A stretch of 64,000 nucleotides of DNA from an uncultured Pseudomonadota bacterium (GTDB lineage Bacteria > Oederibacteriota > Muellerivitia > Muellerivitales > Muellerivitaceae): NCBI GenBank assembly GCA_963770835.1, contig CAVYRH010000007.1, positions 96,001 through 160,000 of the forward strand, in the 5' to 3' direction. The position numbers were made by a program. Positions 21,001-27,000 of this stretch are shown here, one piece after another. Each line of letters begins with the position of its first letter. The first letter of the stretch is position 1.

Positions 21001-24000
21001 AATACGACGCGGTGGGCTTGGGCCCCCATGATTTCGACTACGGTAAAAAAACACTCCTCGATTACCGTAAGACCTTCCGGATCCCCTGGGTTTCGGCCAA
21101 TGTGGTTGTACGCACAAACTTCCAGAATTTCATGCGTCCTTACGTGCTCAAGTACGCCGACATGCGAGTGGGAATGATCGGGTTCAGTAATCCCGATACA
21201 ACCTCGCTCACCCGCCGGGAAAATGTGTCGGGGCTTATCTTTAACCCACCAGGAGCTTCCGCCAAGGGCCTCCATTCGATCCTGAAAAAAGATGCGGATT
21301 TTTTCATCGCCTTGAGCCAACTCGGGATGGACGCAGACAAAAAGTTTGCCAAGGACAATCCCTTCCTGCACGTTATCATCGGCGGTTTCAGCCGGACGCT
21401 TTTAACCAAGCCGGTGGTGGAAACAAAGGCTGACGGCAGTCCCGCAGGCCCGCTGATTGTCCAGGCAGGCTCCCGGGGGTTTTACCTGGGCCGATTGGAT
21501 CTAACCGTGGGGGGACATCGGGACCCTAAAAGTAAAAAAGAAGAGTATTCGGTCGAGGATTTCAAATACCAACTAATTCCCATTACTTCCGACCTACCGG
21601 AGGATCCACAGATGGCGGGCCTCTTGGCCAAGTACAAAGAGAGGCTTAAATCCAAACCCCTCGAAGAAGTGCTAACGACCGTAACCGGGGATCTTACGGA
21701 CTGTAGCGGTGGGGATTCACTTATCGGGGAAATCATGGCCGATGCCATGCGGAAATCGGCCCAAGCGGAGATAGCCTTGGTGAACAATGGATTCTTCAAC
21801 CCTGGTTTCAAATCGGGCGATTTTACCCGCGAGATTCTTTACCAGGTTTGTCCTTCCGATAGCGGAATGGCCGTCATTGATGTGCCCGGGGTTTATTTGA
21901 GGAAGGCTCTTGAGGAATCGGGGACGGAAAAAGGACAGAATGGTTTTTTACAGATTTCGGGTTTGAAAATCCAAAAGAATGGGGAAGAGTTAACGATGTT
22001 GATGGGGGACGAACCTTTGAACGACCGTCGGAAATACCTGGTGGCTGTAAACGATTTTTTAGCCAATGGAAACGGTGGTTATGATTTTTTTGGGAAAATA
22101 AAATCTCGTCGGAAAATTCAAATTAGCCTTCGAGATTTGCTGGAAACGTCGCTTAAAGAAAAACCGAAAATTGCACCGGAGGATTTGGAAAAACGCTGGA
22201 TACTGCCGTAAGAATAGTTTGAATGTCCCTGAACGTCGTGCAACCATCCCCTTTATCGCCTCTTTCCTTGACACCCCTTCCCCGGCCCTTATAATGCCGC
22301 TTTCGACACTCTCGTTTTTAAAGTTGATCTAGGATTCAAATGCCGCGTAAAACTATAAAAAAAACAAAAGTTGTTCCTAAAACCTCCTCTAAGGCCGCCC
22401 GTTCCCCGCATCCTTTAAAGGTTCTCTTGGCGGCTTCGGAAGTCGTACCTTTCGCTAAGACGGGCGGGTTAGCCGATGTGGTAGGGGCCCTTCCTAGGGC
22501 GCTCTTGAAATTGGGATGCGAGGTCGCGGTGGTCCTGCCCAAGTACCGCAGTATTTCCCCGGAAAAATACAAATTGAAAGTTGCGGTCAAGGATATGCCG
22601 GTCCCAATGGGAATGGGTGAAATGAGCGCCGATATCCTTTCGACCCGCCTGGGTGATACGCATGCGATGGCTTATTTCATCCAAAACGACCGTTATTTCG
22701 ACCGGGGAGGCTTTTACGGCACTTCCGAAGGTGATTACCACGATAACGCCGAGCGCTTCGCCTTTTTCTCCCGCGCCGTCCTGGAAATGCCCAAAGCACT
22801 CCATTGGTATCCCGACATCCTCCACCTTAACGACTGGCAGACGGGGCTGGCTGCGGCTTACTTGAAAACCATCTACAAGGATGAGCCTGCTTTTTCCTCA
22901 ACCAAGAGCCTATTTACCATTCATAATATGGCCTACCAGGGGCTCTTTCCCAAATACGTCTTGCCCATGACGGGAGTCGGCTGGGAAGAATTCAGCCCCG
23001 ATAAACTCGAATTCTATGACCAGGTTAATTACTTGAAGGCGGGGTTGGTTTACTCGGACGCACTGAACACCGTTTCGGAAAGATACTCTCGGGAAATCCA
23101 GACCGACGAATTCGGGCACGGGCTCCAAGGGGTCCTCAAGTCCCGTTCTTCGGACCTCCATGGCATCGTCAACGGTATCGATTACGATGAATGGAATCCG
23201 GCAACGGACCGGGAAATACCCTCCCAATATACGGTTAAAAACCATGAAAAAAAGTTGGAGTCAAAGCGGAAACTGTTAGAAGAAATGGGGCTGGAGTTTA
23301 AACCCGGCGTTCCAGTAGTGGGATTGGTTTCCAGACTGACCGATCAGAAGGGGTTAGACCTTATCGCCGAAACCATTGAGAGCTTTCTCTCGATGGATGT
23401 CCAATTCATCGTACTGGGAACGGGGGAACCCCGGTACCACGCCCTTTTCGAGAATTTAAACCAGAGATTTCGCACGAAGTTGTCGGTCGCGTTGAAGTTT
23501 GACCCCCGACTTTCCAAAATGATTTATGCCGGCAGCGACTTATTCTTAATGCCGTCGCGTTTCGAGCCCTGCGGCCTGGGCCAAATGATCGCCATGAAAT
23601 ATGGAACCATCCCGGTGGTGCGCCGCACGGGCGGCTTGGCGGATACGGTGGAAAACCTTTCGCTGGACGGCAAAAAAGGGACCGGGTTTGTATTCGACAA
23701 TTACATCGGGGATGAACTTCTTTTCACCATCAAGCGGGCCGTAGAAGCCTTCCACCAGCCAAAGCTTTGGAAGGCCCTGGTCCAGCGGGCAATGAAAGAG
23801 GATTTTTCCTGGGATGTCTCCGCCGAAAAATATCTGGATCTTTACCGGGAAATCCTTCAAAAGTAAAAATCTGCGATTCCCTACTTCGCTTTTAACCACC
23901 ACTCCTGCCAAAATGGAATTATCAAATGGAAGATAAACCGAACAAGTTAACTCAATTTCTCCAGCAAAAGGAAGACGTCCTCCAGGAACGGTGGCGTGCT

Positions 24001-27000
24001 TCCGTGCACCAATTGTCCGGCCGCTTGGAGAGTTTCAGCAAGCACCCTGGGATTTTTGGCGAGGTGCGCGGTTTGCTGCTGGATCTGGTAGCGGTGGTGG
24101 AGCGGACGGGAAGCGTAGAACAAGCGGTAGACGCCGAATTCAACGAGATATTGGCCCACCTCAGGGCTCTTCAATCGGACCACCAACTTTCCTCCGCCGA
24201 CATGGTTTTCCTCCTTTTTTCCATGAGGGACGCGGTTCGGGAAGCGGTGCGAGAGGTCGTGGATATGGGGCCTGACGGCCAGCATGAAGTTTCCACACAT
24301 TTCCAGGTGGTAAGCCAGGTTTCCATGCTGTTAAACCGGCTGGGGCTTGTCTTTTTCGAGGGCGCCATGCGGCTACGGGAGGATGGGGGCACGCAGGACG
24401 TACTTGCCATTGAATATGCCCTCCTTTATGAACGGGCCCGCCAGATGGCTATCACCGACCGCCTGACCGGGCTTTACAATTTTGGCTATTTCCACGAACG
24501 CCTAAAAGAAGAGCGAATGAGAGCGGAGAGGTACCATCGTCTTTTATCGCTGGTCATTCTCGATATCGACCATTTCAAGAAATACAACGATTCCAACGGC
24601 CATCCGGCAGGGAACGAGGTTTTAAAGAAAATCGCCACGATCCTAAAACAAGAGGCCAGGGAAGTGGACATTGTTGCCCGTTATGGAGGGGAGGAAATGG
24701 TCATCATCCTTCCAGAAACAAGCCGGAGACGAGCCGCCGAATTAGCGGAACGAATTCGTCAAAGGGTTTCAGAAGGGCTCTTCGACCACATGCAATCCCA
24801 ACCGCTCGGGAAGCTGACTATCTCGGCGGGCGTGGCCACCTTTCCCGTTGACGCCTCCACGGAGGATGACCTGATTAAAAAGGCGGACACCAGTCTTTAC
24901 CAGGCCAAAGCCCAGGGCCGCAATCGGGTCGTGGTCTTTGAGCCGCCAATCAAGGTGCCGATCACCTATCGGCCCAACCGGGAAATTTCCAAGGTCGCAT
25001 TGGTTGGCAACTTCAACAACTGGGACAAAGACGCGGATCCCATGTTACGTCAGGAGGATAGTACTTTCCGTTTCGTGATCGCCCTCAATCCCGGACTTTA
25101 TCATTACAAGTTTGTTTTGAATGATGTCGAATGGATACCCGATCCATCCTGTCCGGAACGAGTTCACGACGGGTTGGGCGGTGATAATAGCGTGCTGCGG
25201 GTACACGCTTAGTCCTTTACGGTTCCTTCCCACCAGTGCCCCGGGAATTCCAAAAAACACTAAACATTTCCAACGGCTTTTGATAAGCTTTCGGTCTTAA
25301 TCCGCAGTTTTTGGACGGAAAATGGCCGATTACAAGTCAACACTCAATATCACGCAGACCTCTTTCCCCATGAAAGCCAATCTTCCCCAAACCGAGCCGG
25401 AGAGGCTCAAACTTTGGGAAGGGATGGGCTTTTACCGCCGCACCTTCGAGAAGCCGGGCGCCCCTAAGTATGTTCTGCACGACGGCCCTCCCTTTGCCAA
25501 CGGCGACATCCACATGGGCCATGCCTTGAATAAAGTGTTGAAGGACATCATCGTCAAATACCAGGCCTTGAAAGGTCAGGACGCGCCCTACGTACCGGGG
25601 TGGGATTGCCACGGCATGCCTATTGAGCACAAAGTGGTGGAGCAATTGGGCCCCAAGGTTAAGGCCATGTCCAAGGTAGAAATCCGCAATGAGTGCCGGA
25701 AATACGCGGGAAAGTTCCTGGACCGCCAGCGGGAGGAGTTCAAACGCCTGGGCGTTTTCGGCGATTTTGAGAAACCTTATAGCACCATGGACCCGGCTTA
25801 TGAGCTGTCCCTGGTGAAGGCCCTGACAAAGATGGTTTCGGAGGGTTATGTCAACCGCCGCTTGCGCCCCATCCACTGGTGTCCTGTGTGCAAATCCGCC
25901 TTGGCCGAGGCCGAGGTGGAATACGCCGACCATGAATCCCTTGCCGTGACAGTCGCCTTTCCAGTGAAAAAGCTACCGGACGACGTTTTTCCCAATACAC
26001 CCCGCCAAAACCTCTCATTCCTCATTTGGACGACCACCCCCTGGACGCTGCCGGCCAACCTGGGGATTTCGGTGCATTCCGATTTTGAGTATGTGACTCT
26101 TCAAGTGAGGGACGCTTATTACATTGTGGCTAAGGTGCTTTTGCCCCAGGTGGCAGCCATGTGCGGTTGGAAGGCTTCGGATTTCAGGATTATTGATGAG
26201 ATCCGAGGTGAGGCTTTGGACCGTTCCCTGGCCCGACACCCTTTTCTAGACCAAGATTCCCTTGTGATGGTAGGCGCCCATGTAACCGCAGAGGCCGGCA
26301 CGGGCTTGGTGCACACGGCCCCCGGCCATGGCCGGGAAGACTATGAAATTGGCTTGAAATACAACTTGCCCATCTATTCGCCGGTGGACGAGGCGGGGAA
26401 GTATGATTCCCGGGTCAAGGAATATGAGGGAATGACCGTCTGGGATGCCAATCCCAAGATCGTGGAAAAACTTAAAAGCCTGGGCCGACTTCTTTCCCTT
26501 CAAACCATCAAGCACAGCTACCCGCATTGTTGGCGCTCGAAAAATCCCATCATCTTCCGTGCTACCGCCCAATGGTTTATCGAGCTGGATCACAAAGATT
26601 TGCGCAAGAAATGCCTGGCGGAAATCGAGAAGGTCCAATGGATTCCTTCCTGGGGAAAGGACCGAATCAAAAACATGGTGGAAGGCCGCACGGACTGGTG
26701 TATTTCCCGGCAGAGGGCCTGGGGCGTGCCCATCGCGGCCGTTTACTGCAAGGCTTGCGGGAAGGTTGTGGGCGACCTCAAAGTGCTGGAGTCCATCGTT
26801 TCGCTGGTCCAAAAAGAAGGCATCGACGGCTGGTTTGAACACCAAGCACAGGATGTTCTCCCCCAAGGATTCAAGTGCCCTTGCGGTTCCTCCGAATTTG
26901 TAAAGGAAGAGGACATTTTGGATGTTTGGTTCGAATCCGGTAGTTCCCATTTCGCGGTCATCGATCAAAGGGAAGAACTAAAAAACGCGAATTATATCCT

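Follow-up and report, generated by a model that had tools for sequence, protein, structure and literature searches.

A predicted glycogen-docked, feedback-inhibited cyclic-dinucleotide synthase encoded directly behind a bacterial glycogen synthase gene

Non-catalytic glucan modules on signalling enzymes are known from AMPK, whose beta subunit has a glycogen-binding domain of the CBM48 type (1z0n/1z0m, 6b2e); the available part of McBride 2009 (PMC2642990) reports that mutating W100, K126 or W133 lowers glycogen binding. In Streptomyces, the CBM48-bearing protein GlgX links glycogen directly to c-di-GMP as an effector that reads the messenger, and the accessible sections of that paper (PMC9530166) describe a large gap in what is known of how second messengers connect to glycogen in bacteria. 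No signalling enzyme taking glycogen as an input was found in the literature, nor was a report of a GGDEF-CBM48 fusion, in agreement with the novelty that a first-pass annotation had claimed for such a protein. The diguanylate cyclases PleD, WspR and DgcR have a DxLT turn, conserved metal and catalytic residues, an RxxD I-site, and a helical dimerising N-terminus, and the Hypr enzymes GacA (6d9m), GacB, Bd0367, and GSU1937 have an I-site, a base reader other than Asp (Ser in GSU1937), and an aromatic residue at the cross-dimer position. Both this position and the equivalent of PleD D344 are tied to specificity in the portion of eLife 43959 that was available, and D344 is called essential for canonical activity in an excerpted review. 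A D-to-S change inactivated four of five canonical enzymes, and known Hypr enzymes require Ser/Thr plus a central Asp. No published test of Asn at the base-reading position was found; one may be contained in Hallberg 2016 PNAS or in the figure supplements of eLife 43959.

The window analysed here is a stretch of 64,000 nucleotides from an uncultured bacterium, and all features described are on its plus strand. The only glycogen synthase gene of the genome, glgA (GT5; 22340..23866, 508 aa; PF08323 E 4.6e-88, TIGR02095 E 3.7e-176), is followed after 59 bp by a 428-aa open reading frame (23926..25212) with the three domains that the first-pass annotation had described: a helical RsbRD_N-like domain (residues 8-108), a GGDEF domain (175-334, E 1.2e-47), and a CBM48 (PF16561, 351-427, E 2.4e-9, above the cut-off). 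The structural model of the fusion protein has a pLDDT of 88.6 and a pTM of 0.71 (AF2). The protein has no hydrophobic stretch above KD19 1.33 and no signal or membrane segment, so its ligand should be cytoplasmic. A sigma-70-type promoter-like site before glgA (22268..22295; 12/12 consensus, 16-nt spacer) has a comparable counterpart ahead of glgA in 8/12 relatives, and no terminator-like site was seen on the plus strand between glgA and the cyclase gene; the site is likely the start of a glgA-cyclase(-ileS) transcript. An Rfam scan of the whole window gave no matches. The upstream STAS gene was considered as a possible partner but set aside, being part of the housekeeping block and also present in G001, a genome that does not have the cyclase.

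The N-terminal domain (residues 8-150, 23947..24375) is all-helical, as judged from the PF14361 profile, an Atlas value of 0.83, and fold search. The RsbRD_N match has an E-value of 1.5e-4 with the whole protein and 6.8e-5 with the N-terminus alone (24.0 bits against a cut-off of 24.3), and 21/27 members match PF14361 at E<=0.1, the best at 1.4e-8. The best fold match, MtR (3zta; Z 7.4, rmsd 4.4, 115 aligned), falls within the helical background, as do the other fold searches, and Foldseek returned nothing at E<=0.001. The domain shares weak profile and fold similarity with the RsbR/MtR non-haem globins (PF14361; 2bnl, 3zta) and has no conserved His, but there is no STAS domain in the chain. 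It is probably a non-haem globin-like RsbRD_N input or dimerisation domain. A highly conserved signalling helix (residues 156-176, 24391..24453) runs from it into the DxLT turn. In homologues of the module the N-terminal partner varies, and may be RsbRD_N-like, an unrelated helical domain (hhalign probability 0.1), EAL, GAF-GAF, or Rec.

The GGDEF domain (24448..24939) matches GacA 6d9m in fold (Z 26.5, rmsd 1.8), GacA being also the second-best PDB sequence match, and resembles PleD, WspR, and DgcR (Z 25-27). In the best 120 homologues the metal, lysine, general-base, and phosphate residues are retained almost without exception: D213 (120/120), K218 (119/119), N221 (120/120), E256 and E257 (119/119 each), K328 (117/118), and R332 (118/118). 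The glycines of the GGEEM signature (24685..24699) are similarly fixed (G254 119/119, G255 118/119), and the I-site (R245-D248, 24658..24669) is complete, with R245 in 115/119, D248 in 119/119, and the secondary R276 and R199 in 119/119 and 120/120. The retention of all catalytic residues across 50-100% identity argues for an active enzyme. The two guanine-selecting positions, however, differ from those of canonical cyclases: the base-reading position (PleD D344, GacA Ser348) is Asn230 (24613..24615) in 120/120, and the cross-dimer position, which is Arg in canonical cyclases and Tyr304 in GacA, is Phe186 by alignment to 6d9m (24481..24483; F in 118, Y in 2, Arg in none). The fifth motif residue is M in 73, L in 37, and F in 9 of 119, rather than the F/Y of canonical cyclases. 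The description of the cyclase as intact therefore held for the catalytic and I-site residues but not for base selection. Known Hypr enzymes in turn combine Ser with a central Asp (GGDE/GGDD), whereas this family has Asn with GGEE.

The Asn-type active site extends beyond this family. In a second clade, whose N-terminus is unrelated, Asn occurs together with an aromatic residue in 42/42, and the fifth motif residue is mostly F. Asn was read at the base-reading position in 13/13 second-clade rows versus 17/289 in the background. A search for related loci in genome contigs, guided by generic GGDEF patterns, gave ordinary cyclases, which served only as background. In CBM-less domains the cross-dimer Arg is found in 0/10 Asn types against 175/252 Asp types (Fisher p 1e-5), and of 14 PilZ fusions, 11 have Asp (10 with Arg, 1 with His) and 3 have Asn, all with Phe/Tyr. 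The GGDEF tree is mostly unresolved, setting apart clade 1 (SH 93), clade 2 (SH 95), and the Asp-type CBM fusions; the CBM48 tree unites 27 Asn-type rows (SH 81), and a single clade of all fused CBMs is compatible with the data (p-AU 0.72).

The C-terminal CBM48 (24949..25209) is of the AMPK-beta type, with W366, K395, W403, L417, G418, and N421, and matches 4aef (Z 13.0) and AMPK 6b2e (Z 11.8, rmsd 1.6). The equivalents of AMPK W100, K126, and W133 are present in 117/117 (W366), 116/116 (K395), and 116/116 (W403) of the best 120 homologues, and the second clade has the W, the K, and an aromatic in 44/44 each. The motifs noted earlier as conserved are indeed invariant or nearly so (GGEE, VGxFNxW, YxYKF, and W403). 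At the position of AMPK L146 there is more latitude (417: L72/M22/Q7/W5), and the equivalent of T148 is Gly in 115/116, which counts against docking. Unlike AMPK beta, this CBM48 is bacterial and sits right behind a nucleotide cyclase rather than in a kinase trimer, and its coupling to the enzyme is a prediction. The joint between the GGDEF and CBM48 domains is a very short four-residue Pro linker in which P340 is near-invariant (117/118).

The fusion gene is present in 28/30 other family genomes, and 116/120 of the best homologues have both PF00990 and PF16561, the four without PF16561 being shorter (241-375 aa); both figures bear out the first-pass annotation. Its claim of glgA adjacency proved stronger than stated within the family: glgA is directly upstream in 26/26 loci with upstream DNA and, by coordinates, in G021, giving 27/29 family genomes, the remaining two being cut by contig ends. 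As repeated evidence the claim did not stand. The ftsY-to-ileS block is equally syntenic (12/12), including the housekeeping gene ileS downstream (25322..28153), which served as a control, so the adjacency counts as one inherited event. In the sister family ileS is directly behind glgA, and the fusion gene thus fills a single slot behind glgA. Outside the family, adjacency was seen in 0/8 phylum loci, 0/7 metagenome loci (40-56% identity), and 0/15 loci of a Planctomycetia-labelled class. Every carrier checked has glgA (8/8 in families f10, f11, and f13, and 5/5 in the Planctomycetia-labelled class), and glgA is found in 28/30 f1 genomes, the two without it being also without the fusion. Across the phylum glgA occurs in 89/99 genomes and the fusion in 37/99, leaving 52/89 glgA-bearing genomes without it. 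GlgC is the usual control point of glycogen synthesis; canonical glgC was found in 0/99 phylum genomes, the control having matched in 8/14. This absence counts against a glycogen-docked cyclase, as do the glgB of the source genome, which is split over two frames, and G074, which carries the module and in which GH13 and phosphorylase were not found. No plasmid match was found, and a search for a Polyangiaceae-type orthologue, in which few candidates were scored and which had no positive control, gave 0/5, 0/401, and 0/401 sampled genomes.

The best reading of this protein is a predicted glycogen-docked, feedback-inhibited cyclic-dinucleotide synthase, through which stored sugar probably gives rise to a second-messenger signal. 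More specifically, and with a probability of roughly 40%, a soluble GGDEF enzyme docks on the glycogen granule and docking is predicted to tune its output of a cyclic dinucleotide; the product of its loosened base pocket would most likely be c-di-GMP. Two monomers would pair via the helical N-terminus and the signalling helix, and the CBM48s, held to the GGDEF domains by the Pro linker, would bind the multivalent granule surface, where binding would change how concentrated the two half-sites are, or their geometry. The I-site would make the enzyme subject to inhibition by cellular c-di-GMP, and the N-terminal domain would add a second input that can be swapped. Asn230 bears an amide, equals Asp in length, and suits the spacing of GGEE; it could recognise either guanine or adenine, and cGAMP may therefore plausibly arise as a side product. 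In this reading glycogen would be an input of the cyclase, although the observations would fit an allosteric input and a mere address alike; relative to GlgX, with the CBM48 now on the writer, the flow of information would be reversed.

With both guanine-selecting positions swapped family-wide, the earlier proposal that carbon-store status is converted into c-di-GMP cannot be kept as stated, and the product may not be pure c-di-GMP. It is conceivable, if doubtful, that the docked enzyme is re-specified, Asn230 and the aromatic forming an amide switch that admits ATP, with 3',3'-cGAMP or c-di-AMP as the main product in a channel apart from ordinary cyclases and cross-inhibited by c-di-GMP as in GacA/GacB. 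Both specificity positions of eLife 43959 (in its available portion) are altered, loss of the Arg coincides with Asn in the CBM-less domains and the PilZ fusions alike, and this is the sole Asn type among the genome's 19 GGDEFs (16 Asp, 2 unread). An amide (Q/N) switch also turns HD-GYP enzymes to cGAMP, and such HD-GYPs outspread the known synthases, according to the accessible text of bioRxiv 600031. Against re-specification, Asn with GGEE is not the Hypr combination; a tree-aware Asn/aromatic covariation test had one supported independent pair and was without power; and G000 and G012 already possess a DAC for c-di-AMP. Among 46 HD-GYP enzymes read in the order, 42 have RxxK, 3 RxxH, 1 DxxE, and none the cGAMP-type RxxQ/N, which favours c-di-GMP. 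Further clues to c-di-GMP are the occurrence of the module in fusion with an EAL domain (P0124), the Asn-type GGDEFs fused to PilZ (3/14), and an MshEN-like PilB in the genome. Riboswitches of the c-di-GMP-I type, the class in which a cGAMP-reading GEMM-Ib would fall, gave no RF01051 match above cut-off in 0/6 genomes checked, but the controls stayed below it too, and this result carries no weight either way. The broader proposal of a third GGDEF specificity class (Asn reader, aromatic cross-dimer residue, GGEE) in at least three phyla, with an adenine-containing product, granule switching via CBM48, and interchangeable N-terminal inputs, is distinctly unlikely; if true, it would give bacteria a glycogen sensor that signals through a second-messenger channel of its own.

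Docking may instead provide only an address, the cyclase being a local c-di-GMP source beside granule-bound enzymes, with glycogen metabolism as target and the N-terminal domain as the real input. The exchangeable N-terminus, the phylum without GlgC, and the precedent of a c-di-GMP-activated GlgX (in the available part of PMC9530166) would suit this, but it is unlikely: the very short, near-invariant linker suggests fixed coupling, granule clustering would itself shift the activity of a dimer-dependent enzyme, and no c-di-GMP-binding glycogen enzyme was identified in this analysis. It is improbable that the GGDEF domain has lost catalysis, or retains only very slow turnover, and acts on the granule as a receptor or scaffold binding NTP or c-di-GMP. 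The replaced D344, the fifth motif residue, and the complete I-site would fit such a role, yet none of the metal, general-base, and phosphate residues varies, which sets the domain apart from decayed receptor domains, and Asn, of Asp length and found with GGEE in 15/17 motif-intact domains, matches the requirement of the Goldilocks spacing model. Sensing of soluble maltodextrins or another alpha-glucan, with an accidental place behind glgA, is quite improbable; pullulanase and amylase modules (5ot1, 4aef) are among the solved CBMs closest to this one, adjacency is missing outside the family, and malQ, pgm, and two phosphorylases occur in the genome, but a chance landing by the single glgA among ~4,000 genes is unlikely (one event, judged post hoc), and glgA is in all carriers checked. 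It is highly improbable that the altered GGDEF is a nucleotidyl-transferase feeding ADP-glucose to the adjoining synthase. The alpha-phosphate chemistry would be alike and glgA occurs where glgC does not, but most glgA carriers, having no fusion, must find another supply, the cross-dimer general base and I-site are retained, and G000 has a GalT-like ORF and three other NTP-transferases.

Whatever their product, the Asn-type GGDEFs form an active-site class for which the soluble 428-aa fusion protein offers a natural test case. If they admit ATP, they could include some of the cGAMP synthases yet to be found, whose existence is suggested by the broader distribution of phosphodiesterases for cGAMP described in the accessible text of bioRxiv 600031. 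They make up about 4% of close CBM-less homologues (10/265), and annotation does not tell them apart from ordinary diguanylate cyclases.

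The ORF that follows glgA (22340-23866, + strand) starts 59 bp past it on the same strand (23926-25212) and encodes a 428-aa protein with a GGDEF domain (residues 175-334, Pfam E 1.2e-47) and an AMPK1_CBM domain (PF16561, residues 351-427, E 2.4e-9, above cut-off), as well as an RsbRD_N match (residues 8-108) slightly below cut-off. The fusion of GGDEF and CBM48 next to glgA described in the first-pass annotation is therefore borne out. The cyclase is the sole PF16561 match in the whole genome, and no membrane segment was found in its sequence. In the AlphaFold model (63 homologues, pLDDT 88.6) a helical domain and a signalling helix precede the GGDEF fold, to which a four-residue linker attaches a beta-sandwich; the beta-sandwich matches amylase CBM48 at Z 13.0 and AMPK beta at Z 11.8. 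A 12-of-12 sigma-70-type site lies upstream of glgA (22268-22295), with a site of similar kind in 8/12 relatives, and no terminator-like site was seen between the two genes, so glgA and the cyclase gene likely share a single transcript.

The cyclase was initially considered intact, which is accurate for the metal, lysine, general-base, phosphate, and I-site residues, nearly all invariant among homologues, but not for the guanine-selecting positions, which are replaced by Asn230 and Phe186. In an ungapped alignment with GacA from Geobacter (6d9m), Asn230 falls on Ser348 and Phe186 on Tyr304, while WspR and PleD have Asp at the first position and canonical enzymes have Arg at the second. According to eLife 43959, the choice between GTP and ATP is set by these two positions, Ser at the base-reading position is functional only with a central Asp, and Asp forces c-di-GMP; GSU1937 also carries Ser there (PMC8835794). 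The cyclase fits neither the canonical nor the Hypr (cGAMP-producing) residue pattern as a whole, but is predicted from its sequence to work as a GGDEF cyclase. Its top 120 homologues all have Asn (120/120) and Phe or Tyr (120/120), with the motif GGEE, while of the genome's 19 GGDEF ORFs the cyclase alone is of the Asn type (16 Asp, 2 unread). In a background of 265 motif-intact GGDEF domains without a CBM, biased because they were picked by similarity to the query, 253 have Asp and 10 have Asn. The cross-dimer Arg is present in 0/10 Asn domains versus 175/252 Asp domains (p 1e-5 with relatedness ignored; a tree-aware test had no power). GGEE accompanies Asn in 15/17 cases, as expected since the Asn side chain has the length of Asp. 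The Asn amide could offer either face to guanine or adenine. Cyclic-nucleotide phosphodiesterases have an analogous glutamine switch. HD-GYP enzymes are re-specified to cGAMP by a Q/N amide switch (bioRxiv 600031). No published test of Asn at the base-reading position was found in a search that did not include the eLife 43959 supplements or Hallberg 2016.

The reading preferred here, tentatively and with a probability of roughly 0.4, is a glycogen-tuned synthase producing mainly c-di-GMP. From the observed architecture and residues, a course of binding, activity, product, and allostery can be proposed: the cyclase would dimerise through its N-terminal helices, the two CBM48s of the dimer would dock on the glycogen granule, docking would alter the concentration or geometry of the GGDEF half-sites, and c-di-GMP would feed back through the I-site. 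The Asn/Phe pocket would also suit a re-specified enzyme producing cGAMP or c-di-AMP, which is rather unlikely. Against a cGAMP channel, there is no RxxQ/N type among the 46 HD-GYP domains read in the order (42 RxxK, 3 RxxH, 1 DxxE; 48 places, 47 fetched), the same GGDEF-CBM48 module also sits behind an EAL domain (P0124), Asn-type GGDEF domains are found with PilZ, and the genome encodes an MshEN-like PilB. c-di-GMP is therefore kept, at modest odds, as the likelier main product. A CBM48 serving as an address only is slightly less likely still. It is improbable that the GGDEF domain is an inactive receptor; the replaced pocket could accommodate this, and the conserved catalytic residues argue for an enzyme.

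Alignment with rat AMPK beta-1 places W366, K395, W403, and L417 on W100, K126, W133, and L146, and mutating these AMPK residues lowers glycogen binding (PMC2642990). Among the top 120 homologues, W366 (117/117), K395 (116/116), and W403 (116/116) are constant, position 417 varies (L72/M22/Q7/W5), and the AMPK T148 position is Gly. With these contact residues conserved, the CBM48 keeps its putative glucan-binding platform, and the cytoplasmic location of the cyclase points to an intracellular alpha-glucan as the probable ligand. Another glucan as ligand is quite improbable. The genome G074 carries the module, yet a search there for GH13 and phosphorylase found none. G074 also encodes three near-identical stand-alone CBM48 proteins of ~90 aa (L152, L153, L154), and exported CBM48s in the phylum follow an anti-sigma-like membrane anchor or form the last part of an outer-membrane-like protein (L143, L151). 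The genome under study has glgA, glgB, two phosphorylases, malQ, pgm, and a probable GH57, the GH57, malQ, and pgm labels being readings of the sequences. Its glgB (C2:97311-99564) is broken across two reading frames; a nearby glutamate synthase gene also appears fragmented, so assembly indels are likely. Canonical glgC was found in 0/99 phylum genomes (control in 8/14), a gap that the cyclase itself might be imagined to fill as an ADP-glucose supplier, although this is barely credible; a GalT-like ORF (G000:C2:62665-64002) is a candidate source of the sugar-nucleotide donor for glycogen synthesis. In 4/14 loci glgA is directly behind a homologue of GH94 cellobiose/cellodextrin phosphorylase (L207, L209, L215, L217; families f18, f21, f22, f23), which suggests that cellulose-derived glucose-1-phosphate is channelled into glycogen there.

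The cyclase gene is present in 28/30 other family genomes, and P0274, named Polyangiaceae, is a full-length orthologue at ~53% identity. An EAL-like gene (L182:1932-2999) lies upstream of a distant full-length orthologue. A second clade of GGDEF-CBM48 proteins, at 44-51% identity, carries an N-terminal domain unrelated to that of the cyclase (hhalign probability 0.1) and occurs in 8 genomes from three other families of the phylum, in 16/62 genomes of a Planctomycetia-labelled class, and in proteins named Planctomycetota. Asn is found in 8/8 second-clade proteins of the phylum, 15/15 fetched from the Planctomycetia-labelled class, and 42/42, the 42 also having Phe/Tyr. No count depends on the genome G100, which entered only as one row in the comparison behind the 8/8 and in the GGDEF tree. 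Because Asn is kept across unlike N-termini, the durable unit, judged by sequence, is the Asn-type GGDEF with CBM48, and the inputs appear swappable. The Asn-type CBM48s cluster in the CBM48 tree with weak support (SH 81). In three more CBM48 fusions, with GAF-GAF, with Rec, and of one other kind, the residue is Asp, and 14 proteins with the second-clade N-terminus have PilZ instead of CBM48 (11 Asp, 3 Asn). Asp/Arg and Asn/aromatic sites coexist in a helical domain-GGDEF-PilZ family (P0356-P0405, some named Desulfarculus), a natural pair for probing the specificity switch. The literature search found no GGDEF-CBM48 protein, although subscription papers were mostly outside it; the nearest reports concern the action of c-di-GMP on GlgX in Streptomyces (PMC9530166) and the sensing of glycogen by AMPK (PMC2642990).

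The proposed adjacency to glgA holds throughout the family, but as a single inherited block that is absent in distant loci. It is seen in 26/26 informative family loci and, by coordinates, in G021 (27/29 genomes; in 2/29 the locus is cut at contig ends), and in 23/23 informative metagenome loci of at least 59% identity; of the 33 metagenome loci in all, 3 lack upstream DNA and 7 are distant. The order ftsY-STAS-nucleotidase-glgA-cyclase-ileS is syntenic in 12/12 genomes, so the adjacency was inherited once, as a unit. G001, a 97% complete genome of the sister family, has ileS directly after glgA, and this small genome also lacks HD-GYP; the cyclase gene was either inserted exactly after glgA or lost from G001. 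Adjacency was found in 0/8 phylum loci outside the family (some short; the next gene is a HAD hydrolase by motif), 0/7 distant metagenome loci, and 0/15 Planctomycetia-class loci. Every carrier genome checked has glgA elsewhere, and co-occurrence discriminates little since glgA is present in 89/99 phylum genomes. The STAS protein (20266-20616) is far more conserved than its neighbours, with 86-99% identity in 11/12 family genomes and 82% in the sister family. Before lgt lie two lspA-like signal peptidase II genes in tandem (28153-29114), against one in the sister family, and a transposase gene (33512-35062), presumably IS21-like, adjoins a fatty-acid desaturase gene.
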